Shown: positions 2,841 to 64,000 of the stretch, piece after piece
Layout: the number at the start of each line of letters is the position of its first letter
Numbering within the stretch: position 1 is the stretch's first letter
Assembly: GCA_045643285.1 (NCBI GenBank)
Contig: JAZUKN010000041.1
Coordinates: 666 to 64,665, forward strand
Source: Eubacteriales bacterium
GTDB taxonomy: Bacteria > Bacillota > Clostridia > Oscillospirales > CAG-272
DNA: 64,000 bases
Reading direction: 5' to 3'
Made by a program: the position numbers and the translations under genes
The notes under the pieces: model-generated
Seen by the model: only the letters and a program-made list of their open reading frames with translations
Told to the model about the DNA's origin: nothing
Databases searched by the model: none

Positions 2841-3557
2841 ATGAATTCACCCGACAACAGAACGGAAATCACCATAACCCTTGAGACCGCCTTCGGAAAG
2901 GCGCTCTACCGCGAGATCACCGGAATAAAAGCCGACATCGACGCAATAGTCGAGCGCGACCCTGCCGCACGCGGAAAAGCCGAAGTCGTCCTGCTTTATT
3001 CCGGACTTCACGCGCTTATCCTGCACCGCATTGCGTATTCTTTACACACACATAAACTCAGATTCACCGCGCGCGCCGTATCCCAGCTCGCAAAATTTCT
3101 TACGGGAATCGAGATCCACCCCGGCGCAAAGATCGGAAAAGGCGTGTTCATTGACCACGGCGCAGGCGTTGTCATCGGCGAAACTGCCGAAGTCGGAGAC
3201 AATTGCACCATATATCAGGGCGTCACCCTCGGCGGCACCGGCAAAGAGACCGGAAAACGCCATCCTACGCTTGAAGACGGCGTTATGGTCGGCGCAGGTG
3301 CAAAGCTCCTCGGCGGCTTCACGGTAGGAAAAGGCTCGAAAATCGCCGCAGGTGCAGTCGTTCTCGGTGACGTTCCCGAAAACTGCACTGCAGTCGGCAT
3401 ACCTGCTCACATCGTCCGCAGAGACGGCATAAAAGTCACGGACGACCTCGACCAGGTCCACATCCCCGACCCTGTCGAGAACGAACTGAATGCGCTGAGA
3501 GAACGGATCGCCGCTCTCGAAGAAAAGATAAGGGAAAAGGAGAAAGAAATCAGATGA
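2841..3557 (+). CDS. cysE: Serine O-acetyltransferase
   Basis: RDPAAR, TGIEIHPGAKIGKGVFIDHG and GVTLGGTGKETGKRHPTL; start moved to ATG 2841 after GGAGG. Confidence 0.95.
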   Translation: MNSPDNRTEITITLETAFGKALYREITGIKADIDAIVERDPAARGKAEVVLLYSGLHALILHRIAYSLHTHKLRFTARAVSQLAKFLTGIEIHPGAKIGKGVFIDHGAGVVIGETAEVGDNCTIYQGVTLGGTGKETGKRHPTLEDGVMVGAGAKLLGGFTVGKGSKIAAGAVVLGDVPENCTAVGIPAHIVRRDGIKVTDDLDQVHIPDPVENELNALRERIAALEEKIREKEKEIR

Positions 3558-4783
3558 AATGCCTGAATTGCGGTACAGAATCGAGAGACGGAGAAAAATT
3601 CTGCCCCGAATGCGGTCAGAAGCTGCCACGAAAAACGTTCGGCGGAGTTATCTCCGTTTTAGTCAAAGTCCTGCTCTGTACGCTTATAATGCTCATCTGT
3701 CAGGGCTGTGTCGCATCGTTCTATGAAACCTCGGTAATGCTAAAAGACCCGGCTTACGTCGCGGCGGTGACCTCTGCGGCGGCTGAAATGCAATCGGGTG
3801 CAAGTGCTGAAGAGGTAGCCGAAAGCCTGACAAACGACATCCAATCACTCACCGCGAGAGCAGCCGAAAAGACATTGGAGCGTTTGTCTTCCGTAACGAT
3901 AGTCGGAAATCTCGTAGCATTGCTCGTACTGTTGCTCGTCCTCCGCCTGCGTAAGCATGAGCCGCTGAAATACCTGCGCGTGAAGCTCGTCAATCCGGCG
4001 CGGATACTGTCGTTTCTGCTGTTCGGCGCGGCTCTTTCTTTAGTCGTCGGAGCCGTGATGTCGCTCATTCCCTTCTCTGATAAGATAATCAAAGAATACA
4101 ACGATATGTCTCTTACCGCGCTCTGCAAGGACTCCCTCACAGTACAGATAATCTGCACGGTATTCATCGCACCCGTCATTGAAGAGCTGATCTTCCGCGG
4201 ATTTGCGGTGCCGCATCTTAAGCAGGTCATCGGAAAAGCCGGTGCGGTCGTCGTCTCGTCGCTGTTCTTCGCCTCAGTCCACTTTGCACTCACCACCGCG
4301 TCGCTGATTTCCGTCGGATATGCGTTCGTTGTCGGCATAGTGTTCGCGCTGGCGTTCATCAGGTACGATTCCGTCATCCCGTCGCTTCTCTTCCATATCG
4401 GATTCAACGCCATGAACTTCGTAAAGTTCAACGAGAACGGCACTGTCCCATACGCCGTTGTGATGCTCGGTTTTCTCATCTCCGCACTGCTCGAGTACAG
4501 GATATTCTTCCGTTATCCGACCTTCTCCGACGTTGTGTTCGCGCCGTCGTCGATAGAACCGAAAGACGAAGAAGAAGCGCGCATCATATCGAGAATAGCC
4601 GAAATTCGTTCGGGAGACGACGACTACTACACCGAAGAAATAGAAGAACTGAGCCGCGACTGGGACGAACACTTCCGCGCTCTGCACGGTACAGTATCTC
4701 TGCACGCTACAGTCATTGTCAAAGCCGATCAAACGGATGACGAAAGCAACAACGAAAACGACACCACTCCAAAGGAGCAATAA
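3554..4783 (+). CDS. CPBP/Abi (CAAX protease-like) membrane protein with an N-terminal zinc ribbon
   Basis: CxxC...CxxC N-terminus, APVIEELIFRG, FASVH and HIGFN motifs, several hydrophobic segments. Confidence 0.85.
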   Translation: MKCLNCGTESRDGEKFCPECGQKLPRKTFGGVISVLVKVLLCTLIMLICQGCVASFYETSVMLKDPAYVAAVTSAAAEMQSGASAEEVAESLTNDIQSLTARAAEKTLERLSSVTIVGNLVALLVLLLVLRLRKHEPLKYLRVKLVNPARILSFLLFGAALSLVVGAVMSLIPFSDKIIKEYNDMSLTALCKDSLTVQIICTVFIAPVIEELIFRGFAVPHLKQVIGKAGAVVVSSLFFASVHFALTTASLISVGYAFVVGIVFALAFIRYDSVIPSLLFHIGFNAMNFVKFNENGTVPYAVVMLGFLISALLEYRIFFRYPTFSDVVFAPSSIEPKDEEEARIISRIAEIRSGDDDYYTEEIEELSRDWDEHFRALHGTVSLHATVIVKADQTDDESNNENDTTPKEQ

Positions 4784-4784
4784 A

Positions 4785-6260
4785 ATGAAACTATACAATA
4801 CACTCACAAGGACAAGAGACGAATTTGTCACACACGAGCCGGGCAAGTGCAAAATGTACACCTGCGGACCTACCGTATATCACTTCGCGCACATCGGAAA
4901 CCTCCGCTCGTACATAATGGAGGACGTGCTCGAAAAGTACCTCCGCTATACGGGACTTGACGTTACAAGATGTATGAACATCACCGACGTCGGACATCTT
5001 TCAAGCGACGCAGACACAGGCGAAGACAAAATGCTCAAGGGCGCAAAGCGTGAACACAAGACCGTTATGGAAATCGCGCAATTTTACACGGATGCGTTCT
5101 TCTCTGACTGCGCGAAGCTCAACATAAAGAAGCCGGAGATCGTTGTGCCGGCGACAAGCTATATTGATGAGTTCATCAATATGGTGTCGGGACTTATCGA
5201 CAAGGGCTACGCCTACATCTCGGGCGGAAACGTGTATTTTGATACGTCAAAGCTCGACGACTACTACGTTTTCGGCAATCAGGAAGCCGAAGACCTCGCA
5301 GTCGGAGTGAGAGAGGGAGTAGAGGAAGACTCGTCGAAGCGGAACAAGACAGACTTCGTTCTGTGGTTCACGAAATCGAAATTTGAGGATCAGGAACTGA
5401 AATGGGACAGCCCGTGGGGAGTTGGGTACCCCGGCTGGCACATAGAATGCTCCGCGATCTCGCTCAAAAACCTCGGAGAATACCTTGATCTCCACTGCGG
5501 CGGCATCGACAACGCATTCCCTCATCACACGAACGAGATAGCGCAGAGCGAAGCGTACCTCGGTCACAAGTGGTGCACGCACTGGTTCCATGTTCTCCAC
5601 CTCAACACCGCGTCCGGCAAGATGTCGAAGTCGACTGGCGAGTTCCTCACCGTTTCTCTTCTCGAAGAAAAGGGATACTCTCCGCTCGTTTACCGTCTCT
5701 TCTGCCTCCAGTCGCACTACAGAAAGATGCTTATGTTCTCGTGGGACGGACTTGATTCAACGAAGACCGCATACCAGAAGCTGATCTCGAAAATCGCCGC
5801 AGTACGCGAAGAGGGTGACGTCGACAGCGCGGTATTCGCCGAATACAAACAGAAATTCACCGACGCTATGGACAACGACCTCAACACCGCGCTTGCAGTC
5901 ACAGCCGTATACGACGTTCTGAAAGCGCAGACGAACGGCGCGACAAAGCTCGCTCTGATAAAGGATTTTGATACCGTTCTTTCCCTCTCGCTGATCGAAG
6001 AGGCCGCAAAGGTGCGCGCCGCAAACGACGAAGCCGCACGCGCGAAAGCCGCAGCCGCCGCGTCGAACGAAATGCACATAATTTGCTCGTCCGACGGAGT
6101 TGACGGCGAAATGAAGTCGAAAGTCGAAGCGCTCATCCGCGAGCGTGCCGATGCAAAGAAAGCGAAAAACTACGCACGCGCCGACGAGATCCGCGCTGAA
6201 CTTACCGGAATGGGCGTAACGCTCGTCGACGCAAAAGACGGCGTTACATGGTCTATATAA
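4785..6260 (+). CDS. cysS: Cysteine--tRNA ligase
   Basis: MKLYNTLTR start after AAGGAG; [18 protein letters not shown] and KMSKS motifs. Confidence 0.97.
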
Positions 6261-6284
6261 AATCTCACTGAAACGGAAAGAAAA

Positions 6285-6977
6285 ATGGCAAAAGAACTTC
6301 TGCGGGTAAACGGTGTGACGGTATACACCGACGAGGGCGTGCGGCTCTGCTCCGATATATCGTTTTCGCTCAGCGAGGGCGAATATATGTGCATAGTCGG
6401 TCCGGGGGGATGCGGAAAAAGCCTGCTCACCGATATGATACTCGGCATTCGCAAGCCGCTCACCGGCGAGATCGTCTACGAAAACGGACTGACGCGCGCC
6501 GACATCGGCTGTATGCCGCAATCCGCCGACTACATGGGGCAGTCTCTCGTGAGGGACATTGTAATAGGCGGATGCCTTGTGAATATGAACAAACTGTTCG
6601 TCGGACGGCGTGAAAAAGAGACGGCTATGGCAAATCTCGAACGGCTCGGAGTCGCTGACCTCGCAAAACGGCGCTTTGGCGACCTCTCGGGCGGACAGAA
6701 ACAGCGTGTACTTCTCGCGCGTGCGATGTGCTCGGCGAAAAAACTGCTCATTCTCGACGATCCGATGCACGGGCTTGACATCGTCGCAAAGGACGAGCTG
6801 TTCGCTCACATTGTCGAGATCAACCGCGACGACGGGATCGCAGTGGTGATGATCGACCACGACGCGCTCGACGGCACTGTGCTCCACCTCTCCGACCGTA
6901 TGCTCTACTGCGGTCCCGTCGAAGAATACGCAAGCTCCGTCGCAGGAAAATTCTACTTTGCCGGAAGAATAATATGA
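6285..6977 (+). CDS. ABC transporter ATP-binding protein (ZnuC-like)
   Basis: Walker A GPGGCGKS, signature LSGGQKQR, Walker B LILDDP. Confidence 0.85.
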   Translation: MAKELLRVNGVTVYTDEGVRLCSDISFSLSEGEYMCIVGPGGCGKSLLTDMILGIRKPLTGEIVYENGLTRADIGCMPQSADYMGQSLVRDIVIGGCLVNMNKLFVGRREKETAMANLERLGVADLAKRRFGDLSGGQKQRVLLARAMCSAKKLLILDDPMHGLDIVAKDELFAHIVEINRDDGIAVVMIDHDALDGTVLHLSDRMLYCGPVEEYASSVAGKFYFAGRII

Positions 6978-8158
6978 CATCAAAAACAAACTACAAACCC
7001 ACGATAATAGCGGCGTACGTCGGTTACATCGTTCAGGCGATAGTCAACAACTACGTCACGCTTCTGTTCGTAAATTTCCATACGGAATTTGATATTCCGT
7101 TCTCGAAAATCACACTGCTTATCACGCTCAACTTCGTTTCTCAGCTATTGTTCGATTTTCTCGCGGCGTTTTTCGTCGACAGGATCGGCTACCGCGTGAC
7201 AGTCGTTGCGGCGCACCTCTTCTCGGCGGCTGGACTTATCGGAATGGCGTTTCTGCCGTCCGTTATGCCGCCGTTCTACGGACTGCTCGTCTCGTCGGTG
7301 ATCTACGCAATGGGCGGAGGACTTATCGAAGTCGTCGTCAGCCCGATAATCGAGGCATGTCCGAGTGATGACAAGGCAGGCTCAATGAGTCTTCTTCACT
7401 CGTTCTACTGCTGGGGAGTCGTCGGAGTCATTCTCCTCTCAACGGCATTCTTCGCGCTGTTCGGGATCGAAAACTGGCGTATTCTCGCGTGCATCTGGGC
7501 GGCAGTACCGCTCGTCAATGCCGTAGCGTTCATGTTCGTTCCGATCCGCACGCTCACCGAAAAGGGAGAAAGTATGTCGCTCGGAGAACTCGGCAAAACG
7601 GGAATCTTCTGGGTGTTCATCATGCTGATGCTTGCCTCGGGCGCGTCGGAGCTGTCTATGAGCCAGTGGGCGTCCGCGCTTACGGAATCGTCTCTCGGTG
7701 TATCGAAAACCGTAGGAGATCTGCTCGGCGCGTGTATGTTCTCGGTATTCATGGGAGCCACCCGTGTGTTCTACTCAAAGATGAGCGAAAAGATCAAGCT
7801 CGAAAACTTTCTTATGTTCTCGGGCATCCTCTGTGCCGCAACGTACATAATCACGGCGTTCTCACCGCTTCCGTGGCTTTCGCTCGTCGGATGTGCGCTG
7901 TGCGGTATCGCGGTAGGACTTATGTGGCCCGGCGTATACAGTATGGCGTCGGCTCGCTTCCCGAAAGGCGGCACGGCGATGTTTGCGATCCTTGCGCTTG
8001 CAGGGGATCTCGGTTGTTCTACCGGTCCCACATCGGTCGGATTCCTTTCCGGACTGTTCGGCGACGATCTGAAAAAAGGACTATCGTTCGGGCTGATATT
8101 CCCACTGCTTATGATATTCGGACTGTTTTTACTCAAAAAAGAAAAAAAGAAAAGATGA
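6974..8158 (+). CDS. MFS transporter (sugar permease-like)
   Basis: About 12 hydrophobic segments and a VDRIGYR motif-A-like loop. Confidence 0.85.
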   Translation: MTSKTNYKPTIIAAYVGYIVQAIVNNYVTLLFVNFHTEFDIPFSKITLLITLNFVSQLLFDFLAAFFVDRIGYRVTVVAAHLFSAAGLIGMAFLPSVMPPFYGLLVSSVIYAMGGGLIEVVVSPIIEACPSDDKAGSMSLLHSFYCWGVVGVILLSTAFFALFGIENWRILACIWAAVPLVNAVAFMFVPIRTLTEKGESMSLGELGKTGIFWVFIMLMLASGASELSMSQWASALTESSLGVSKTVGDLLGACMFSVFMGATRVFYSKMSEKIKLENFLMFSGILCAATYIITAFSPLPWLSLVGCALCGIAVGLMWPGVYSMASARFPKGGTAMFAILALAGDLGCSTGPTSVGFLSGLFGDDLKKGLSFGLIFPLLMIFGLFLLKKEKKKR

Positions 8159-54370: not shown

Positions 54371-54790
54371 TTATTCAGAAATCAATTCGCCGGTGAGGAT
54401 CGTGTCGTTTTTCTGGACTTTGACCTGTTCCTCAATCTTCGACGTGAGCCATTCTGTCAGGCTGCCGTAGGCGGAGGCGATGAAGTCCTTCGCTTCCTGC
54501 GTCATGATCTTCGTGGCGGTGTCGTAGCTCTTCTGGAATGCCTCGCGCTGGTTCTCCGGCGTGAAGGTGCCGGACTTCTTCAGCGTATCGACGTAGGTCT
54601 GGTTCGTCACCGTTACCGCCGTGATGACGGCATCTCCGGCTTCGTTCAGGAGCCTCTTTGCGGTCCCGTCGGTTACCTTCGCGGTCGCTTCCTCTTTCTT
54701 GGCTTTGAGAAGGTCGCAGAGGTATTTCGTGACGATGGGTACCGCTGCTATGATGACCGCCTGCAGGAGGTCAAAAAGTAAATCTTTCAT
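54371..54790 (-). CDS. Holin-like protein (LL-H-type)
   Basis: N-terminal TM segment, AVTVTNQTYVD..KK and KIEEQV pattern; downstream of the endolysin. Confidence 0.65.
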   Translation of the reverse strand: MKDLLFDLLQAVIIAAVPIVTKYLCDLLKAKKEEATAKVTDGTAKRLLNEAGDAVITAVTVTNQTYVDTLKKSGTFTPENQREAFQKSYDTATKIMTQEAKDFIASAYGSLTEWLTSKIEEQVKVQKNDTILTGELISE

Positions 54791-54836
54791 GGTATGAATT
54801 CCTTTCTTTGTTGGTCTTATTTTTCGACCGTGACGG

Positions 54837-55025
54837 TTAGGTTTTCTGACCGTCCGTGTCTTCTGGTTTGCACCCTGACCCTTCGTAGAAGCAATTCTCG
54901 CAGTCCTCCGGCTTGCATCTGCAGTCTTTGCCGTCGCTCTTGGCGAGGCTGACGATCCAGATTGTCCAGAGGGCTACCTCCAGAACGAACGGCAGAAGGT
55001 TCAGGATGGCTTCTATCGTCTTCAT
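54837..55025 (-). CDS. Small membrane protein
   Basis: One TM segment and a Cys-rich tail. Confidence 0.5.
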   Translation of the reverse strand: MKTIEAILNLLPFVLEVALWTIWIVSLAKSDGKDCRCKPEDCENCFYEGSGCKPEDTDGQKT

Positions 55026-55028
55026 GGC

Positions 55029-56777
55029 TTACGCCTTTGTGAAGGAGCCGTTGTCTACCCAGCCGTAAACGGTCGCGCCGCTGCCGGATTCTCTCACGAG
55101 GTGGTAGGGGTGCCTGCTCTTGCCGAGCTGGTAGATCTGCGTGATCTTCGCCTTGCCACCCTTGCAGCTCTTCGCGTTCGTGGAGTTCGCGCTGGTATAG
55201 TGAACGGTGCCGGTGTAGTTGACGATGTCTCCCACCTTCGGTGTCCACGCGGGTGCTGCGGGCTTCGCGGTACCGGCGCAGAGTTCGTTCACGCGGTTCT
55301 GGACTGCGCTGTAATCGTAACCGGCGGCGGTGAGTTTCTGCTTTCTTGTGTCTCCGTTGCCCCACTTGCCGTCGAGGACTTCCTTCGCCAGCTCGTCCAC
55401 GGTCTTCTTTGCGGTCGTGGGAGCCGCAGGCGCGGCGGCCGCAGAAGTGCCGGGGATTTTGATTTTCTGCCCGACGCTGATGATGTTCGGGTTGGCGATG
55501 CCGTTGTATTCGGCGAGCTTCTGGTACGTGGTTCCGTACTTCTTGGCGATGCCGGAGAGCGTGTCGCCCTTCTGGACGGTGTAGACGGTCTCCGAGCCGG
55601 TGCTGGGAGTAGTGGTCGTGCCGGTTGTCGTTCCGCCGGTCGCGGTTCCTGCGGTCTTCACGTTCTCGCTCTTGCCGGTGTAGGTGACGTAGGGAAGTTT
55701 ACCGTGCTTCGTCCAGTTGCGGGTGTTGTAGCCGCTTCTGGTGTTGTTGCAGGCGGTAATCTGCACTTTGTTCGCCCACTTCGGTGTGCATTCCACGGCG
55801 AGACCGCCGCCGACGTAGATGCCGATGTGTCCTTCCATCCACACGGCTTCGCCGACTTCAATGCTGGAGAAGTCAGAGGAGACGTTCTTGCAGACGTTGA
55901 TCATGCTGTCGGCTCCGATGTCCGGCACTCCGTTGCAGGCGTAACCTGCGCCGCCGTATGTCTTTGACGTGTCGCCACACCAGCCCCAGAGCAGTCCCTT
56001 GATGAGGCAGACGCAGTCGAAGCCGAAGGTGTCCGCGCTGGCCGCGTTGATCATCTTGGTTCTGTCCGCTGCCTTGTTGTAGGAGTGGTTGCTGGTGTAT
56101 CTCTTCTTGTTCGCCTCGTTCATGGGTGCGCCGAAGCAGCCCATGATGTAGAGGGTCTTGTAGTTCTTCGCTACGCTGATCGCCTTCTCTGCGAGCTGCG
56201 CGGCGGTTGTGATTTTGGTTGACATTGAGGTTGCCTCCTTCTTTGTTTCTGTATTGGTCGTCGTGGCGTATTTGTCGTAGTACTTCTGACCGTAAGAGGC
56301 GCGGGTGTTCTGGACGCTCTCGCTCTGGTTCGCCGGTCTTTCGTACTGCAACAGCACGGCGGTGGATGCCGCTTTGACGGTCGTCGCGGTTTTCAATGTC
56401 TGAAGCAGTCCGCTGTATCCTTCGGACAGTTCCTTCCAAAGGAAGCCGAGCTGCATTTCGAGGTCTCCGATGCTCTTGCCGACGCTCTTCGCGTAGTTCA
56501 GAAGGTTCTGCTTGCGCGACCAGTACGTCCACTGTGCCAGACCGTAACCGGCGGCATCTTTCACGAAGTTGCCGTAGGCTCCGCTGTCAACGGCTGCGGT
56601 GTACCCGTCGTCGGTGTAGCCGAGTTTCGTCTCGTAGGTGTTCTGCAGGTTGTTCGGGCGCAGTCCGCTTTCGGCATAAAGGTTGCCCATCAGCCCTGCG
56701 GTCCCGTTTGCGTTCAGTCCTTTTCCGATGAGGAAGTTCCAGATTTTCTCCTCATTGGTCGTTCCTTTCAGTGCCAT
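55029..56777 (-). CDS. Multi-domain endolysin: phage tail-lysozyme-like domain, Cys/His peptidase-like domain, LysM, Cpl-7 and an SH3-like C-terminus
   Basis: [20 protein letters not shown]; FDCVCLIKG...GHIGIY; [13 protein letters not shown]; [12 protein letters not shown]...[11 protein letters not shown]. Confidence 0.9.
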
Positions 56778-57141
56778 CGTTTGTACCTCCGTTATTTTGG
56801 TTCATCGCGTCCTCGCGCTCCTCCATGTGCTTCTGGTCTTCCAGCTGGTTCACACGGTCTCTGAAGCGTTCCTTCGCGGTCTTGATCCACGCCATCGCTC
56901 CGCACTCTCCGCCGAGGGCGGCAAATACGCAAGTGACGAGCGTGTCTGGTATCATTCCCGTTTCTTTGTAAAGATGTATCATCTCCACCGTGAACGCCAG
57001 AAGGGCGACGGCAATGATGACGAGAATGATGTCCATCTTGTTGAATGTCTTCTGTGGTTTTGCAGCTTTCGCTTTCGCTCTGGCTCGCTTTTTACGGCGG
57101 AGCCAGAGTTCCAACTTGCTGCGCTTCTTCTTCGCAGCCAT
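56752..57141 (-). CDS. Two-TM phage membrane protein (holin-like)
   Basis: Basic N-terminus and two hydrophobic segments; overlaps the endolysin start. Confidence 0.6.
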
Positions 57142-57145
57142 TGTT

Positions 57146-57547
57146 TCACCTCTTTTTCAGACGGAGGTTGTTGACCTCGCGCATCAGGACGTCGAGGTCT
57201 CCGTTTCCGCCCAGCCCGCTGTGGTAGCTGCGGTGCATATCATTCAGGATGCGCCGGTCATCGAAGTCGATTTCTCCTTCGTCTATGTACGCCTGTCCGA
57301 GGTATCGGATTCGGTCATACAAGATGTATTTGATTGCCTCGCTTTGTGCGTCGGTCTTCGCTTCGATAGCCAGCAGGCGTTCCTCTGTTCGGAGGCTCGC
57401 TTGCTTCTCGGCATCTTCCTTCTTCTGCTCCGCTTTGTCTTCCTTCACGGCTTTTCGGTTTCTGCGCCATGCGAGGGCTTCTTTGATGCCCTCGATGACG
57501 GCGACTGCTACGCCGCCGGAAAGGATGGCGGCAAGTAAATTATCCAT
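57146..57547 (-). CDS. Phage lysis-region membrane protein (holin-like)
   Basis: N-terminal TM segment and YDRIRYL...YHSGLGGNG motif; start MDNLLAA after a GGAGG RBS. Confidence 0.65.
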   Translation of the reverse strand: MDNLLAAILSGGVAVAVIEGIKEALAWRRNRKAVKEDKAEQKKEDAEKQASLRTEERLLAIEAKTDAQSEAIKYILYDRIRYLGQAYIDEGEIDFDDRRILNDMHRSYHSGLGGNGDLDVLMREVNNLRLKKR

Positions 57548-57773
57548 TGGTGCCTTCCTCCTTTCCGCACGTTCCGGTGTTGTGGATCGGACGCATACCG
57601 TATTCCAGTATGTCGAGTTCGTCCTCAATTGGTTTTCGCTTGGCTGCAAATTTCTTTTTGCACTCTTCATCAACAGTCAGCTGCTCCTCGATAAAAAGTG
57701 CCTGTTCGCGGATGATCTCCGCCTGTGCTTCCGTGACCGCGCAGAGGCGGTCGATGAGTTCAAGTGTTGTCAT
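57540..57773 (-). CDS. Phage hypothetical coiled-coil protein
   Basis: 77-aa ORF overlapping the next gene. Confidence 0.55.
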   Translation of the reverse strand: MTTLELIDRLCAVTEAQAEIIREQALFIEEQLTVDEECKKKFAAKRKPIEDELDILEYGMRPIHNTGTCGKEEGTNG

Positions 57774-57804
57774 TGTGCCTCATGCGCTCCTTTCTTCGCG
57801 TTCC

Positions 57805-57936
57805 TTACTCTGCCGCCAGTTCAGCCAGTCCACTCTCTTCGAGAATTTCTCTGACCTGATCCTTCAGCAATTTCGGAACCTGCGCGAAGGTCTTCTTGCC
57901 GAGGATGATTTTCTGCGCCCATAACATAGCCATCAT
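57805..57936 (-). CDS. CD1375/XkdX-like small phage protein
   Basis: MMAMLWAQKIILGKKTFAQVPKLLKDQVREIL with an AAGGAGG RBS. Confidence 0.75.
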   Translation of the reverse strand: MMAMLWAQKIILGKKTFAQVPKLLKDQVREILEESGLAELAAE

Positions 57937-57979
57937 CGTTTCGCCCTCCTTTCCGTATAAAAGTCTGGAAATCAAGCCC

Positions 57980-58453
57980 TTAACCGTCATAGACGATTTC
58001 GGACATTTCAAGGAGGCAGCCTTCGAGGAAGTCGTTCCTCTCTGCCTGCTCCTGCAGCTGCTCTTCGAGCGACGCGATCCTGCGTCGCATCTCCGCCACC
58101 GACATGACGGTTTCCTGCGGTTCTTCATCCGGGTTGTCCTCCTCTTCGGTTGGTTCCTCCGGCACGGGTTCGGGATCGTCCGGGATTTCCTCGCCGTCGT
58201 CCAGCTGCTGCCGGATGGTGAGGTATTCCTCTTCGGTAATTTCGACCGCTTCAACGGTTTCAAATGTACCGGCTTCGGTCGGTGCGGGGTTCAGCCAGCC
58301 GACGCGCCAGATCTGCGCTTGGTCGCTCGACTGGATGAATTGTGCCTCCGAAGCGTCGCAGGCGAACATACAGCGGTGCTTCTGGCTCCATTTCAGGAAC
58401 ATGAAGCCCGCGTCGATAACCGTGCCGCCTCTGGTTACTTTGTAATAATTCAT
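57980..58453 (-). CDS. Phage tail-associated hypothetical protein
   Basis: ATG overlaps the RT stop (ATGA); ends in a coiled coil NDFLEGCLLEMSEIVY of the kind seen upstream of CD1375-like genes. Confidence 0.65.
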   Translation of the reverse strand: MNYYKVTRGGTVIDAGFMFLKWSQKHRCMFACDASEAQFIQSSDQAQIWRVGWLNPAPTEAGTFETVEAVEITEEEYLTIRQQLDDGEEIPDDPEPVPEEPTEEEDNPDEEPQETVMSVAEMRRRIASLEEQLQEQAERNDFLEGCLLEMSEIVYDG

Positions 58454-59664
58454 GCGATCATTCCTCCTGTTCTGTATTGGTGGAAAAGTCTGTTGTAAAG
58501 GTTGAGCATTGCTTTTCTGGTGCGGTATGTGTGCGCGATCTTCCTTGCGTTTCCGAACCACGACTTGAAGGACGTGTATGCGTCGTCAAGGCGCATCTTT
58601 CCGAGGTCTACCAGTCTGCGGAATTTCTTCAGCTTCTGGCGCATTCGGACGATGCCGGATTTCGCCATCTTCTTTACGATCCTGTTCGTGTCTGTTACGA
58701 TGTACAGCACTTTCAGGAAGGTGAAGCCTCGGCTTGCCTTGACGATCCGCGTCTTCTTCTCGTTCAGTTCAAGCCCCAGCCGGTCGCAAACCTCCCGTAT
58801 GGTGCCGAGGAGTGCCGTCAGGCGTTCCTTCGTGCCTGACGTGTATCCGTCGTCCATGTATCGGATGTGGTGCTTCATGCACTCCTTGTCCTTGACTGTG
58901 TGGTCGAGTTCGTTTGGTATTACGAGTGCCATGTCCTGCGATATCTGGCTTCCGAGTGTGGCTCCTATTGCTTCGTCGTTCTCCAGCTCGGCGATCCGGC
59001 GTTCTCGTTCTTCTGGGTCTGTTATGGTCGAGATGTCTTGCTTCTGGTACATTTTGATGAAGTACATCGTGAGTGCCTGAAGCCTATCGTCCTGTCCTGC
59101 CTTTCCGAGTTCGTACCGGCACCGGCTGTGCCTTATGCTGTCAAAGAAGCCGTGGAAATCATAAAGCAGCACGTGGAAGTCGTTTCCGTGTTCTCTGATT
59201 TCCTTCTGCAGGTGGCAGTCCACCCGCCGACGTGCAAAGCTCACGCCTTTGCCTTTGGTGCTTGCGGGGTTGTCGTAAATGAGGGACGGCTGCGTGAGTG
59301 GGGTTATGCTGCTGTCGCAGAGGCTCCCTTGTATCACTCGGCTGTCTATCATGATTGCGTGGCAGTCCCGCCGCTTTCCTCGTTCGTTTACGACGAGGTG
59401 CCGGATGGTCTGGTTCACGTTCAGCACTCCGTCGTTGAGGTCGTGCTTTGCCCGGTAAATCTTCACGGGCGCGTGTTGGATGTAGCTCTGAACGCTGCCT
59501 TTCCATTCCGTGTCTTTCCTGCGCTTCTGTAGGGAGTGCAGGTGGTTCTGAATTGTGTTGACGTTCTCAAAGGTCCCGTATTTCTCGATGCGCGGTTTTC
59601 GCTTCTCGGCTTTGCGGTCTTTGGATCGTCTGATTCGTAGCTGTTTTCTTTCTTGATTGTTCAT
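58450..59664 (-). CDS. DGR-type reverse transcriptase
   Basis: 404 aa; ERGKRR, NPASTKGKG, DFHGFFDSI, LGSQISQ, RYMDD and FTFLK motifs; no obvious maturase or endonuclease extension. Confidence 0.93.
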   Translation of the reverse strand: MNNQERKQLRIRRSKDRKAEKRKPRIEKYGTFENVNTIQNHLHSLQKRRKDTEWKGSVQSYIQHAPVKIYRAKHDLNDGVLNVNQTIRHLVVNERGKRRDCHAIMIDSRVIQGSLCDSSITPLTQPSLIYDNPASTKGKGVSFARRRVDCHLQKEIREHGNDFHVLLYDFHGFFDSIRHSRCRYELGKAGQDDRLQALTMYFIKMYQKQDISTITDPEERERRIAELENDEAIGATLGSQISQDMALVIPNELDHTVKDKECMKHHIRYMDDGYTSGTKERLTALLGTIREVCDRLGLELNEKKTRIVKASRGFTFLKVLYIVTDTNRIVKKMAKSGIVRMRQKLKKFRRLVDLGKMRLDDAYTSFKSWFGNARKIAHTYRTRKAMLNLYNRLFHQYRTGGMIA

Positions 59665-59975
59665 AGTGATGAAGTCTCGGCTTCGCCTGTCCCGACGGTC
59701 TTATCGTCGCCGCCAGCCGTTGCTTTCGCTCCGGCTCTTGGTTGTGCGCCTGTTCTGCCGGGTAAATGGTACCGGGAATGAAACGGTGCGGGGCGTTCGC
59801 CGCGCCGCCATGCAAGAAGCGTCCTCCCGACCATAGCAGGACACCGCCGTGGTGTATCGTCCTTGCGGCAGGACGGTCATGTATTTACCGTGGTGATGCC
59901 CACGGAGGGCTGTGTTCTCCTTCTCATGATTTGAATTGTTTCACCCTTATACATGGTTACTTTAATCATGAAAAT

Positions 59976-60110
59976 CGCACGCAGACGCCATTGCTGTTGG
60001 ACGCGTTGTTGCCGTTCGTGTTCACGTTGCCGTTGTTGTTCACATTGCAGAAGTTCGTCGCGTTGGTGACGGACGCACCGCGAAGCCAGAAGTTGTTCGC
60101 TGCAAACCAT
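59976..60110 (-). repeat. DGR template repeat (TR)
   Basis: 135-nt gapless match to 61031-61165; contains 15 AAY codons in the target reading frame. Confidence 0.95.
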
Positions 60111-60136
60111 TATCAGAACACCGCCCATGTCTCCTT

Positions 60137-60934
60137 TCATTTCAGATTTTTATAACGCTCCCTGTCGGCTGTTTTCAGCCCGTCCAGAAGCCGTAGCTCT
60201 TTGTCGAGGAGACCCGCCCACTCGTCCATCGTCGCCTCGCTGTATTCCATGATGAGCCAGAGGGAGAGGAGGGGTCGCTGCATACCGTTCAGGCTGTTGA
60301 TGGCAGCCTGCAGGTGGTTCTCGCGCTCCTGCGCCTCCGCTTTGGTCGTCGGGATGTGGTGGTTGGCGAGGATGACCTCGTATAATGCGGTGTCTATGAA
60401 GTCCGCGATCCTGTTACTCAGGGTGTCCTTGCAGTAATCCGGCGCGTGACCGATTTTGGTGTAGGTGTATTTGTGAAGCTCCGCCAGCGTTTCAAGGAAG
60501 GCGAGCCGCTTCATCTTTGCTTTCGGAAGTGCTATAAACATCGGCTGTTCCTCCTTTGGTCTTTTTGTTACTCCCCAGATGAGAGCGATTTCTCGGTTTA
60601 TCTTGTCCGTCCAGTCCTTCGCGCTCTCTTCCTTGATGTCCATCAAGTTCCAGACCGCGAGGAGTGGCTTTTGCAGGCTCATGATCTGCCGGATCGCTGC
60701 GTCGAGCGTCTTCACCCGGATTCGCTTTCCCGCTTCCGTCCTCGCGCTCTGTTCGTTTGCGAGAATGACTGCGGTGTATGCCCGATTGGTCGGCTCGTAC
60801 ACTCTGGGGTTGACGAATTTCTTATAGCGCACCGGCACGGAGTTCAGACGTTCGGTCGTGTACTTGTGCAGGGCTGCCATTTGTCGCTCGTATTCCGAAA
60901 ATGCCAGCTGTCGTTTTGATAGGTGTACCGACAT
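60137..60934 (-). CDS. avd: Avd-like DGR accessory protein with two tandem Avd-like domains (265 aa)
   Basis: True start MSVHLSKR at 60934 after AAAGGAGG; lies between VR and TR; internal repeat LHKYT..VILAN..AAI..Q(K/R)PLL..W..W. Confidence 0.75.
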   Translation of the reverse strand: MSVHLSKRQLAFSEYERQMAALHKYTTERLNSVPVRYKKFVNPRVYEPTNRAYTAVILANEQSARTEAGKRIRVKTLDAAIRQIMSLQKPLLAVWNLMDIKEESAKDWTDKINREIALIWGVTKRPKEEQPMFIALPKAKMKRLAFLETLAELHKYTYTKIGHAPDYCKDTLSNRIADFIDTALYEVILANHHIPTTKAEAQERENHLQAAINSLNGMQRPLLSLWLIMEYSEATMDEWAGLLDKELRLLDGLKTADRERYKNLK

Positions 60935-60967
60935 TCTTTCTTTGTTCCTCCTTTCTGCCGTCCCCGT

Positions 60968-61014
60968 TCTGCCCCGACTTACGCGGGGCAGATATTGGGG
61001 AGTGCGGCTTCGCC
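60968..61014 (-). promoter_or_regulatory. Hairpins downstream of VR (candidate retrohoming cis element)
   Basis: GGC-GAA-GCC mini-hairpin just after the target stop, then TCTGCCCCG-CGTAAGT-CGGGGCAGA. Confidence 0.65.
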
Positions 61015-61017
61015 TTT

Positions 61018-64000
61018 TTAGATTGAGAAGCGCACGCAGACGCCAATGCTGTCGGACGCGTAGTTGCCGCCCGCGTACACGCCGCCGTTGGCGTTCACAT
61101 AGCCGAAGTACGACGCGTAGGTGACGGACGCACCGCGAAGCCAGAAGTCGTTCGCTGCAAACCATGTGCCATTCTTGCGTACTCTGCCGATGGAGCTGTT
61201 TGCCGTGTCAATCCAGACATCGCCTTCCTGCACGTTGTTTGCCGAGTTCGTTGCCGGGTCTGTGCCGGAAACGAAACGCTGATAGCCGACAGGGAGGGTG
61301 TAGCCTCTGAATTTGATCCTCTCGTAGTTGCTGGTGAAGAAGGTCACGTAGCCGCCGTCGCATTCGTACACCCACGGTTCGCTCGTTCCGCCCTGCATCT
61401 CGATGTAGCACGGGAGCCATACCTTTGTGTCGAGGTCTTGCCCGATTTCGCCCACGCCGTCGTTGCTGACGTTCTTCATGTACTTGACCTTGCACTTCTT
61501 CATCATCTGCTGCCACTCGACCGGGAAGGCAGGCTCGACGCGGGCTTCCATCCACGTGTGCATTGCCGATGCCTTGTATCCTCCTGCGTTCGTGTTGCTG
61601 CTGTTCATAGTGTGTGTGCGCTCCAGCAGGCTGGCGCAGATGAAGTCGATGCTCGTCGGCGTTACGCTGCTCGCCGAGAGTTTGTATTTGCCGAAGGTTC
61701 CGACCTCGAATGTGTAGGTCTCACGCGGCCAGCTGACGATCTGACGGCAGACGCTGTCGCCGAGGTCGCCGTGCCAGAGGCGGCAGGAGTGAAGGATGCC
61801 CTTTGCGAAGTTGCCGACCTGTCCCGCGTCCGTAACGGTCGCGCCGAGGTAAAGGTGAACGTCGCTCTGGGTGTCTATGGTCTTGGTCAGTTCCTGATAG
61901 CCGATTGCGTTGGTGTACTGCTTCGAGGAGTAAACCTTGACATCTCTGCTTCCTGCTTCGTGGCGGATGACGAGGATTTCTCGGTATGTGGTCGCGCCGC
62001 TGTTGTAGGAGTTCGTGCTGTACTGAACGGAGGGACCGCCGGAATACTTGACTTTGAAGCCCATGTATCCTTCTTCCTGCATACAGCAGACCATTGTCGC
62101 GTCCGCTGTCTGTTCATCGAATTGGCAGTCAACGACAAGCGTCCACGCTTCTCCGATGCCGTTCTTCAGGGGCTGTGCGCCTGTGTCTCGGTATGTCGCT
62201 CCGTCAAGAACCAGCTCGTCTGCCAGATCGTCGAACGGGACATTCTGGTACTGTGGCTGGAAGCCGAATGTGATCTTTGTTCTGTCTTTGAACGAGGCGA
62301 AGCTCTGATAGTTGCCGGACTTGACGATGGCGCAGATTTCTGCGGGTGTCATGTCCTCCAGCTGCTTTCCTGCGTTCGGAAGTTCGCCGCGCATCCATTC
62401 CGCCATTACGTCGATGTCGCCGGTGATGAAGCCGGTACTCTTGTTCCATCCCGTGAACAGGTAGTAGACGTACTGTGCTTCCTCGTCGGTTCTTTCCGGC
62501 ATCGTTCCGGCGTATACCGCTTCGTCGCCGTAGTCCACGGTCTGGGTGTCCATTACGACGCCCTGTGAAATCCAGCGCACGGTGTACTGTCTGACGCTCT
62601 CCGAAAAGACGACGTTGACGGTTCTGTTGGCGATGATCGTTGAGAGGTCGTCGTCCCATCCGTTGTATGAATAGTTCGTCGATATGCTGCTCGGTCTCGT
62701 CGGCGTTTGGATGTCTCCGTTGGTTACCGGGTCGGTGGCGTTTTCGCCTCTGTCCACGTATTCCGTCCAGAGTGTCTCGCCGTTCCAGTTTTTGAAGGTG
62801 ACGAGGTACTGCTGGATGAGCGTCTCGTAGGTCACGTTCAGGTCGCTCCATGCGGCGTTGTATGCTGCGAGCTTCGCCTGCCTCATGATCGGGACGTAAA
62901 CGGAGCCGGTCAGGACTGACTGTTCGAGGTTGTGGTCGCTCTCGTCAAGACCTTTCAGGGCTACCAATCTGTCCAGAAGCGTGGTTGCGAGCAGTTCCCA
63001 GTTGATTCCGAGGATTCGGATTCTCGTCAGTCCTGTCGCTTCCGTTACGAAGTCCAGCGTGTCGATTGTCGGGCAGTCCTCAATGCGGGCGGTGCGGAGT
63101 GCGGTGTAGCCTTCAAATGTCAGGTCGGTCAGTGCTTTCAGCGCGATTGCCGAGAAGCTGGCGACTGCGGGAAGGTGCGCCGTTTCGACGTTGCCGCCTC
63201 TCGCAAATGCCACGCCGGTCAGACCGCTTCCTTCTGCTTCGAGCGTTGTCAGCGCAGGGCAGCCGGTAAGGTCGAGACCTTGTGCGATGTTCGGGCAGTT
63301 CCGAATGTCCAGCGTTTCCAGAAGGTTGTTGTTGCCTACGCCGATGGTTTCGACGTTGGTGTTCTGGTAGCCGGTGGTTCCGTCGCCGAGTTTCAGGTGG
63401 CGGAGCTTCTTTGCGGCCGCGATGTTGAAATAGCCGACATAAAGCGGGGCAAGGTCGCCGACGCTGGAAATGTTCGACGCGCTGCAGATGTATATCTCGG
63501 TGTCGTTCAGGGTGTCGATGGGGCATTCCATCGTGTACTCGGTGCCTCTCTTTGCACGGAGCCTCGAAATGCCGGAGCCTGAAACGAGGTTGATGTACAT
63601 ATCCGCGTAGGTCGTGATGGTCATCTCTGTGCCGGGTTCCACGCCGTCCCAGACGGTCGGTGTGTACGCTCTGAATGTGATCTTCTCGCTTTCGGCGACG
63701 GGTGCGCGGTATTTCGACGAGCAGTATTTTTCCTGATACGTCTCAAACTGCCGACGCTGGTCTTCCTTTGTGCCGAGCATCATCTTCAGGTAAGCGTCCG
63801 CGCCTCCGAGCGTGAACGGGTCGATGTACTTCTGCCACATATCCTCAATGACGAGGGCTTCGGGTCTTGCACTCTGGTGGGCTTTGTATCGGGCGAGGAT
63901 TCGTTCTGCATTCCACGCTCCTGCGTTCTCCAGTGTGATGAAAAGCTCGCGCAGGTCGTCGTACAGGAGGTCTCTGACATTGTTCCAGAGGACGCTCGTC
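61018..64000 (-). CDS. Large DGR target protein (putative receptor-binding/adhesin) with LRR, InlB-B-like repeats and a C-terminal DUF6273/C-lectin-like domain; 5' end is outside the window
   Basis: The frame stays open from 63840 to the window edge (TSVLWNNVRDLLYDDL...). The C-terminus WLRGAS..F..VN..G....AS.S.GVC contains VR. Confidence 0.85.
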   Translation of the reverse strand, partial: TSVLWNNVRDLLYDDLRELFITLENAGAWNAERILARYKAHQSARPEALVIEDMWQKYIDPFTLGGADAYLKMMLGTKEDQRRQFETYQEKYCSSKYRAPVAESEKITFRAYTPTVWDGVEPGTEMTITTYADMYINLVSGSGISRLRAKRGTEYTMECPIDTLNDTEIYICSASNISSVGDLAPLYVGYFNIAAAKKLRHLKLGDGTTGYQNTNVETIGVGNNNLLETLDIRNCPNIAQGLDLTGCPALTTLEAEGSGLTGVAFARGGNVETAHLPAVASFSAIALKALTDLTFEGYTALRTARIEDCPTIDTLDFVTEATGLTRIRILGINWELLATTLLDRLVALKGLDESDHNLEQSVLTGSVYVPIMRQAKLAAYNAAWSDLNVTYETLIQQYLVTFKNWNGETLWTEYVDRGENATDPVTNGDIQTPTRPSSISTNYSYNGWDDDLSTIIANRTVNVVFSESVRQYTVRWISQGVVMDTQTVDYGDEAVYAGTMPERTDEEAQYVYYLFTGWNKSTGFITGDIDVMAEWMRGELPNAGKQLEDMTPAEICAIVKSGNYQSFASFKDRTKITFGFQPQYQNVPFDDLADELVLDGATYRDTGAQPLKNGIGEAWTLVVDCQFDEQTADATMVCCMQEEGYMGFKVKYSGGPSVQYSTNSYNSGATTYREILVIRHEAGSRDVKVYSSKQYTNAIGYQELTKTIDTQSDVHLYLGATVTDAGQVGNFAKGILHSCRLWHGDLGDSVCRQIVSWPRETYTFEVGTFGKYKLSASSVTPTSIDFICASLLERTHTMNSSNTNAGGYKASAMHTWMEARVEPAFPVEWQQMMKKCKVKYMKNVSNDGVGEIGQDLDTKVWLPCYIEMQGGTSEPWVYECDGGYVTFFTSNYERIKFRGYTLPVGYQRFVSGTDPATNSANNVQEGDVWIDTANSSIGRVRKNGTWFAANDFWLRGASVTYASYFGYVNANGGVYAGGNYASDSIGVCVRFSI
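61031..61165 (-). repeat. DGR variable repeat (VR) at the 3' end of the target gene
   Basis: 17 mismatches against TR, 16 of them at TR adenines. Confidence 0.95.

Follow-up and report, generated by a model that had tools for sequence, protein, structure and literature searches.

A predicted tandem of two Avd-like domains as the probable accessory protein of a prophage diversity-generating retroelement

Avd is the least understood essential protein of diversity-generating retroelements (DGRs). To our knowledge, the only Avd structures are of a five-fold ring, in which two protomers bind one reverse transcriptase (RT) and all five bind the spacer RNA. The accessible text of 10.1101/2023.10.23.563531 describes, for the DGR of phage BPP-1, that the N-terminal extension of the RT (bRT) contacts two of the five Avd protomers and the spacer (Sp) stem-loop contacts all five, that Sp RNA primes cDNA synthesis and binds Avd, and that the Avd pentameric barrel is similar to S23 ribosomal proteins. 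Avds are basic, with a mean isoelectric point (pI) of 9.5 +/- 0.7, and their genes are "of similar length", with no fusion mentioned in the accessible part of that study (PMC5758913). Here we describe the avd gene of a DGR in a 64,000-nucleotide stretch (the window) of contig JAZUKN010000041.1 of a Eubacteriales bacterium (assembly GCA_045643285.1). The gene, at 60137..60934 on the reverse strand between a hairpin and the template repeat (TR), is an open reading frame (ORF) of 265 codons plus stop with no internal stop, and its product, with two domains in 265 aa, departs from the small single-domain form of Avd. We consider it highly probable that this tandem-duplicated Avd serves as accessory protein to an active prophage DGR, which rewrites a lectin-like tip, and that it arose by a single duplication-fusion followed by asymmetric divergence.

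The 265-aa protein consists of two homologous halves. Residues 1-133 and 134-265 align over 121 residues with 31% identity and 55% positives (BLASTP E 5e-20), and half-against-half profiles built from 39 family members match over 120 columns with an hhalign probability of 99.7% (E 5.9e-26). The aligned blocks are the motifs LAF..LHKYT, VILAN, AAI, Q.PLL..W, and W...E, the same ones quoted in the preliminary description, whose claim of two similar halves is borne out by both alignments. The AlphaFold2 (AF2) model of the whole protein, computed from a 39-sequence alignment, contains two helical bundles (predicted local distance difference test score, pLDDT, 91; predicted template modelling score, pTM, 0.87), and that of the first bundle alone (residues 1-133) has a pLDDT of 87 and a pTM of 0.78. 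Domain 1, more diverged and strongly basic, comprises residues 1-131 (60542..60934, reverse strand), and domain 2, the nearer to single-domain Avds, residues 132-265 (60140..60541, reverse strand).

When the whole-protein and N-half models were searched with VIA-align against 48,161 PDB representative chains, the top four matches were identical for both halves: two S23-family bundles and two bAvd entries, bAvd being the Avd of BPP-1. The C-half (residues 139-260 of the whole-protein model) matched 2gsc_A with Z 16.1, 2rld_A with Z 14.9, 4dwl_A (bAvd) with Z 13.1 (root-mean-square deviation [rmsd] 2.2, 106 aa), and 8ub7_B (bAvd in the DGR ribonucleoprotein) with Z 12.9. The corresponding values for the N-half were Z 14.6, 13.4, 12.0 (rmsd 2.1, 103 aa), and 12.1. 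Both halves are thus modelled as four-helix bundles like bAvd (4DWL; 8UB7), which each of them shares at Z 12.0-13.1 and rmsd 2.1-2.2 over 103-106 of 109 residues. The best structural matches, the S23 ribosomal/23S rRNA intervening-sequence proteins (2GSC, Xcc0516; 2RLD, BT_0352; Z 13.4-16.1, rmsd 1.8-2.2), are single-domain proteins whose Pfam families match none of 39 tandem Avd members, and we know of no link between S23-type four-helix-bundle proteins and DGRs. As in the bAvd locus, the tandem avd lies between the target gene with its variable repeat (VR) and the TR and RT, the protein is basic (pI 9.35), and diversification is adenine specific. Unlike bAvd, which is one 128-aa bundle, the window protein joins two bundles in one 265-aa chain, shares only 13-15% identity with bAvd and no sequence-level match, and has a near-neutral C-half (pI 6.5).

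At the sequence level, 38 of 39 family members matched PHROG 3206, "Avd protein of DGR", with a best E of 2.8e-11. For the window protein itself the match has E 0.0017 and covers residues 138-265, within the C-half only; for domain 2 alone it has E 7.6e-4. The N-half is homologous both to the C-half and to single-domain Avds by hhalign: comparison of single-domain DGR Avds with the tandem profiles gave probabilities of 99.5% for the N-half and 99.9% for the C-half, and two of the single-domain Avds checked match PHROG 3206 at ~1e-10.

Several observations weigh against an Avd identity for both halves. Unrelated bundles such as pectin methylesterase inhibitor and talin scored Z 10.4-12.2, placing the bAvd matches only 1-2 units above them, and for helical bundles a VIA-align Z below ~13 may reflect common arrangement only. 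Foldseek searches of the models against PDB and BFVD gave no match at E<=0.001; among their results, entries of the Avd family or named "Avd-like" reached a probability of ~1.00 and a target TM of up to ~0.88, with weak E-values. The N-half alone had no PHROG match at E<=0.01. No Pfam Avd-type family was found in the window protein or in any of the 39 members. Pfam and NCBIfam gave only sub-threshold, unrelated matches to DUF2096_N and sigma-70, and in NCBIfam the window protein had no Avd-type family and only sub-threshold sigma-factor noise. Neither bAvd nor any other PDB chain was matched at the sequence level (best E 1.5 with phmmer, 0.56 with the profile).

The lack of Pfam and PDB sequence matches, and the inflation of structural scores among helical bundles, are what would be expected if a generic pair of four-helix bundles, unrelated to Avd, happened to stand in a DGR. 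We give that explanation very little credence: PHROG 3206 is matched by 38 of 39 members, the hhalign probabilities tie both halves to single-domain DGR Avds, each half has only Avd/S23-family proteins as its four best structural matches, and the avd position is kept in 49 of 49 related cassettes. We base the assignment to Avd on the fold ranking, the PHROG matches, the relationship to single-domain DGR Avds, and the conservation of the gene's position taken together, and they support the prediction, in part model based, that 60137-60934 encodes a covalent tandem of two Avd-like four-helix bundles. The preliminary description had proposed just such a tandem, and had named as fatal to it the case in which neither half matched the Avd fold. 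Both halves match; where it suggested checking each half by Foldseek or profile methods, bAvd came within the top four by VIA-align, and Foldseek E-values never reached 0.001.

Two-domain proteins of this kind are numerous. A word-indexed protein search returned 66 relatives, mostly of 263-267 aa and 41-99% identical, and none of the 66 carries an informative name or a precomputed Pfam domain. An exhaustive profile search of 1.84 billion representatives (clusters at 50% identity) yielded 464 proteins at E<=0.001, of which 182 reached E<=1e-10 and 79 reached E<=1e-30. The best 150 representatives were classified with separate N-half and C-half hidden Markov models. Two-domain proteins account for 97 of these 150 (94 N-C, 2 C-C, and 1 N-N; 235-358 aa, median 267 aa) and single-domain proteins of 110-160 aa for 28, which makes the tandem Avds a sizeable unnamed family and not a one-off. 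Within the order, tandem Avd was detected in one of 401 sampled genomes, the window's own, and is therefore a sporadic prophage gene rather than a lineage trait. Searches of the GenBank phage collection by blastn and tblastn gave no match, and a protein atlas contained neither the sequence nor any homologue.

We also assembled 49 related loci, 8 from metagenome-assembled genomes (MAGs) of Clostridia, Ruminococcus, Acutalibacteraceae, and Eubacteriales and 41 from IMG/VR viral contigs. In all 49 the reading frame is uninterrupted over residues 1-265 (in one, from residue 10), down to 29% identity, and in all 49 an RT 45-70% identical to the window RT lies downstream of the tandem avd. A target homologue lies upstream in 40; the remaining 9 have <300 nt of upstream sequence. 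On one IMG/VR contig (L052, ~3363-8006), two RT genes and two Avd-like ORFs are adjacent, apparently as two tandem DGR cassettes. Contigs from four public runs, belonging to four studies, were compared with the window over 58400-61300. One spans this whole interval, one the whole avd gene, and two others the junction between the halves, and no indel was present in any of them; the window may itself have been assembled from the sample of the best-matching run. All nine listed between-run substitutions in the avd ORF are synonymous, and the tandem avd is therefore under purifying selection. Contigs from an RNA library (run X16) cover the avd gene, which was not taken as a sign of transcription, and run labels (gut, feces, bioreactor sludge) were not used as habitat evidence beyond the MAG titles.

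The same data bear on the possibility that the long frame is an artefact, either two adjacent avd genes merged by an assembly or sequencing error or a pseudogene. In its favor, a DGR with two separate avd genes is on record in the accessible text of PMC5758913, and the representatives include a few relatives with the N-half or the C-half only. These "single" forms, which nest beside particular tandem proteins, are probably fragments, since each is a cluster of one member and most come from contigs of 517-1,968 bp. An open frame in the 49 independent loci and the 97 two-domain representatives, the indel-free run contigs, and the purely synonymous listed substitutions leave the artefact explanation with a negligible probability. 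The stop or frameshift between the halves that the preliminary description regarded as decisive against its proposal was present neither in the related loci nor in the run contigs.

It had further allowed that double Avd proteins might prove common and already described. Common they are, as the 97 of the best 150 representatives indicate, but we found no description of them. No DGR paper on a fused or two-domain Avd was found in searchable full texts, although subscription papers and supplements may list long Avds without comment; within that scope, the architecture is undescribed, as had been suspected. The sole literature match to "Avd fusion" was an engineered Avd-Fae fusion. The accessible parts of PMC6642488, PMC8934634, PMC8632793, PMC10743442, and 10.64898/2026.07.21.739853 treat Avd in its standard form only, and in that of PMC8144416 the words "Avd" and "accessory" are absent.

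To place the origin of the fusion, a domain tree was constructed from 223 rows, comprising 98 first domains, 98 second domains, and 27 single-domain proteins (110-160 aa); the tree excludes 26 representatives that were partial or of odd length, and its midpoint root is for drawing only. All 98 first domains form one group (SH-aLRT support 98) and all 98 second domains another (93), with 17 true single-domain Avds in a third (89). Because first and second domains each form one group, one duplication would predate the whole two-domain family. The linker residue Met132 lies no more than 3 residues from the position aligned with Met1, and in the single-domain consensus the N-terminus (MSV..KR, P.RY) is like that of domain 1 and the C-terminus (W...D.E..L..G..K.DRERYK.L) like that of domain 2. 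For both reasons the sequences fit an origin of tandem avd by gene duplication followed by loss of the stop codon of the first copy. A DGR with two separate avd genes, recorded in the accessible text of Wu et al. 2018 (PMC5758913), has two Avd units per cassette, as here, but in separate genes and not in a fused chain, and would be a plausible forerunner of the fusion.

In an RT tree, 36 unique RTs of tandem loci are separated from 5 RTs of single-Avd loci by one branch with support 100. This split is itself open to objection, as it rests on 5 RTs from 4 single-Avd loci, locus searches with single proteins having returned only 3, and on a quick tree; the test is small, and partly circular because the groups were chosen through Avd itself. 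The suggestion that double-length avd tracks one RT clade thus gains a fully supported branch and keeps the narrowness of that comparison. Taken with the domain tree, the pattern indicates one old duplication-fusion that appears to have been kept in one RT clade of gut Clostridia phages. In the history that we propose, an ancestral single avd would have been duplicated and its copies fused, once, in the ancestor of that clade, and both bundles would have been retained since, domain 1 keeping the N-terminal signature and domain 2 the central and C-terminal signature.

The single-domain Avds of the sister lineage are homologous to the tandem form, occur in the same cassette order, and have a related target and RT (33-40% identical to the window RT). 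They are one bundle of 132-146 aa bearing both the N- and C-terminal signatures, whereas the tandem form splits these signatures between its domains, and their RTs fall on the opposite side of the support-100 branch from the tandem RTs. One of them is found in the window's own genome, a 2.3-Mb MAG, where contig 28 (L051) carries a second DGR with an ordinary single-domain Avd of 136 aa. On the reverse strand of that contig, the RT is at 1-1176 (37% identical to the window RT), avd at 1468-1878, and a related target from 1954 to beyond 3378. One host genome therefore carries both Avd architectures.

The two domains of the tandem protein are not equivalent. The whole window protein is basic, as Avds are, with a pI of 9.35, a value that comes from an N-half of pI 9.9 (net +9) and a C-half of pI 6.5 (net -1). 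Across the 97 two-domain representatives the difference is smaller, with a median pI of 9.4 for the N-half and 9.0 for the C-half, and in 68 of them the N-half is the more basic. Conservation is slightly higher in domain 2, which has a mean pairwise identity of 0.263 against 0.237 for domain 1 and is the more conserved domain in 65% of 4,753 pairs. Residues M1, S2, V3, R8, and R36 are common to domain 1 and the single-domain Avds, and N191, P195, R204, A211, D257, R260, and L264 to domain 2 and the single-domain Avds. Within single proteins, the identity between domains 1 and 2 has a median of 13% in a broad alignment; the window subfamily, at 29-31%, is among the least diverged. The "specialised halves" considered in the preliminary description thus receive indirect support from these sequence comparisons.

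A weakness of the view that both bundles work as Avds lies in the N/R/A signature: domain 2 and the single-domain Avds retain it, but in the family at large it is gone from domain 1, which may therefore have ceased to act as an Avd. In that case domain 2 alone could be the working Avd, for example in the usual five-fold ring, and domain 1 would be a diverged appendage that does something else, for instance by binding further nucleic acid, target DNA, or a host factor, or by regulating the element. The faster evolution of domain 1, the absence of the signature from most of its members, and its want of a PHROG match are consistent with this, as is the closer relationship of single-domain Avds to the C-half, whose profile they match better (hhalign E 1.9e-31 versus 2.6e-22 for the N-half) and to whose positions, ~134-264, the single-domain representatives align. 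Yet none of the 97 two-domain representatives or the 49 loci lacks domain 1, its model has the fold of Avd and shares its four best PDB matches with domain 2, and domain 1 is the more basic half, as befits an Avd. It also keeps the N-terminal motif of single-domain Avds that domain 2 has lost, and the loss therefore points to a complementary rather than a one-sided process. On balance we regard an appendage role for domain 1 as unlikely.

By analogy with bAvd, the tandem protein would bind the N-terminal extension of the RT and the spacer RNA, and would position the template-primer duplex for adenine-mutagenic cDNA synthesis, with which the DGR would rewrite the C-terminal lectin-like tip of a large tail-fibre-type protein. 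In BPP-1 the RT contacts a pair of adjacent Avd protomers; the fused bundles may be the equivalent of that RT-binding surface, which the fusion may therefore hard-wire. As each chain contributes two bundles, the number of bundles must be even if only the full-length product exists, and a C5 homopentamer of five bundles is a logical impossibility, on arithmetic, for the full-length chain alone. Candidate assemblies would be a three-chain, six-bundle ring or a particle of five chains whose ring consists of only one of the two domains. We tentatively suggest, as a possibility more doubtful than not, that the fusion created an intrinsically asymmetric scaffold in which the ancestral jobs are split between a mainly nucleic-acid-binding half and a fixed, RT-gripped pair, with a stoichiometry new among described DGRs, either the three-chain six-bundle ring or a 2+2+1 arrangement obtained through an internal start.

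The internal start in question is an ATG, that of Met132 in the interdomain linker, preceded at 8 nt by a Shine-Dalgarno (SD)-like AAGGAGG, as read from the sequence (60539..60556, reverse strand). If it were used, the gene would have two products, the full-length tandem and a free 134-aa second domain, and two tandem chains with one free domain (2+2+1) would rebuild a five-bundle ring. The internal SD duplex, at -11.8 kcal/mol, is stronger than that at the annotated start (-9.8 kcal/mol), and is the second best among 257 codon positions and the best among 13 in-frame start codons. Of 41 unique related ORFs, 36 have a start codon in the corresponding alignment column, and the internal SD is the best among in-frame starts in 28 of the 41, many of which are near-copies; the purine-rich motif persists while linker residues vary. 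Synonymous recoding, however, gave no support for codon-level selection on the internal SD: the observed strength was reached in 2-76% of trials (median ~25%), and in only 2 of 20 distinct linkers was the fraction <=5%, so that the linker residues by themselves account for most of the motif. The internal SD of the largest subgroup (-7.2) is far weaker than the true start (-13), and the four most distant members (29-33% identity) are without one. The 134-aa gene calls that begin at Met132 are single-member clusters on contigs of 517-1,968 bp and are probably truncation artefacts, and a 2+2+1 ring would need one non-cognate interface between two second domains. The simpler explanation is that the SD and ATG are a relic of the start of the second gene, and the chance that two products are made seems to us slim.

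The tandem avd is part of a complete DGR cassette on the reverse strand, in the order VR, hairpin, avd, TR, spacer, and RT, with the RT, the adenine pattern between TR and VR, and the VR at the 3' end of the target gene that characterize a DGR. The target gene, tail-fibre/receptor-binding-like according to the ORF list and a Pfam DUF6273 match, occupies 61018..63999 and encodes at least 993 aa, its frame being open to the window end, or 940 aa from the first ATG. DUF6273 forms the C-terminal domain of the target (residues 745-932, E 2.6e-09) and includes the VR region; DUF6273 resembles a C-type lectin domain, according to the accessible text of PMC10743442. The VR (61024..61165) and the TR (59969..60110, starting 27 nt after the avd stop codon) form a direct repeat of 142 nt that is 87% identical. 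The downstream copy is taken as the TR because 17 of the 19 mismatches fall on its adenines, which number 38 in total; the other 2 are at T. The target stop codon lies 6 nt past the VR end and is followed by a GC-rich hairpin (60957..61008; DNA folding -19 kcal/mol, z -4.07), which none of 200 shuffled sequences matched in folding. According to PMC5758913, the IMH (initiation of mutagenic homing) site of the BPP-1 DGR is followed downstream by a GC-rich inverted repeat. Between TR and RT is a non-coding spacer of ~300 nt (59665..59968), delimited by its position, which is presumed by analogy to be the counterpart of BPP-1 Sp RNA, and the RT of 404 aa is encoded at 58450..59664 (Pfam RVT_1, E 1.4e-12).

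Comparison of the run contigs suggests that this cassette is in use. Of the listed between-run differences in the VR (61046-61152), 22 of 24 are at places where the TR has an adenine on the coding strand, and none of the differences listed lies inside the TR; 48 further between-run differences exist beyond those listed. The DGR thus appears to be active and to diversify its target with the tandem Avd as its only accessory protein. In run X1, a 32.9-kb contig with a depth of 136.8 matches the window only in short pieces around the TR (59807-60055), skipping 119 nt, and probably belongs to another phage of that sample whose TR/VR sequence is related.

Downstream of the cassette on the same strand, a 582-aa ORF at 55029-56777 has cell-wall-hydrolase and LysM-like repeat sequence, as judged by eye from the translation, and small ORFs that look membrane spanning lie just downstream of the RT (neighbours at 54371-58561). 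Their arrangement would fit a prophage lysis module adjoining the DGR.

The tandem Avd family is tied to one DGR lineage of gut Clostridia phages. Because no Pfam Avd family matches any of 39 members, domain-based pipelines miss it, and domain-based surveys would score tandem-Avd cassettes as lacking Avd, inflating the "Avd-independent" class of DGRs in gut phages. A tandem Avd could yield a smaller or better-defined particle of RT, Avd, and RNA for structural work and for engineered DGR mutagenesis. A long-conserved lineage with two joined, diverged Avd bundles breaks the symmetry of the ring and reveals contacts that are separable.

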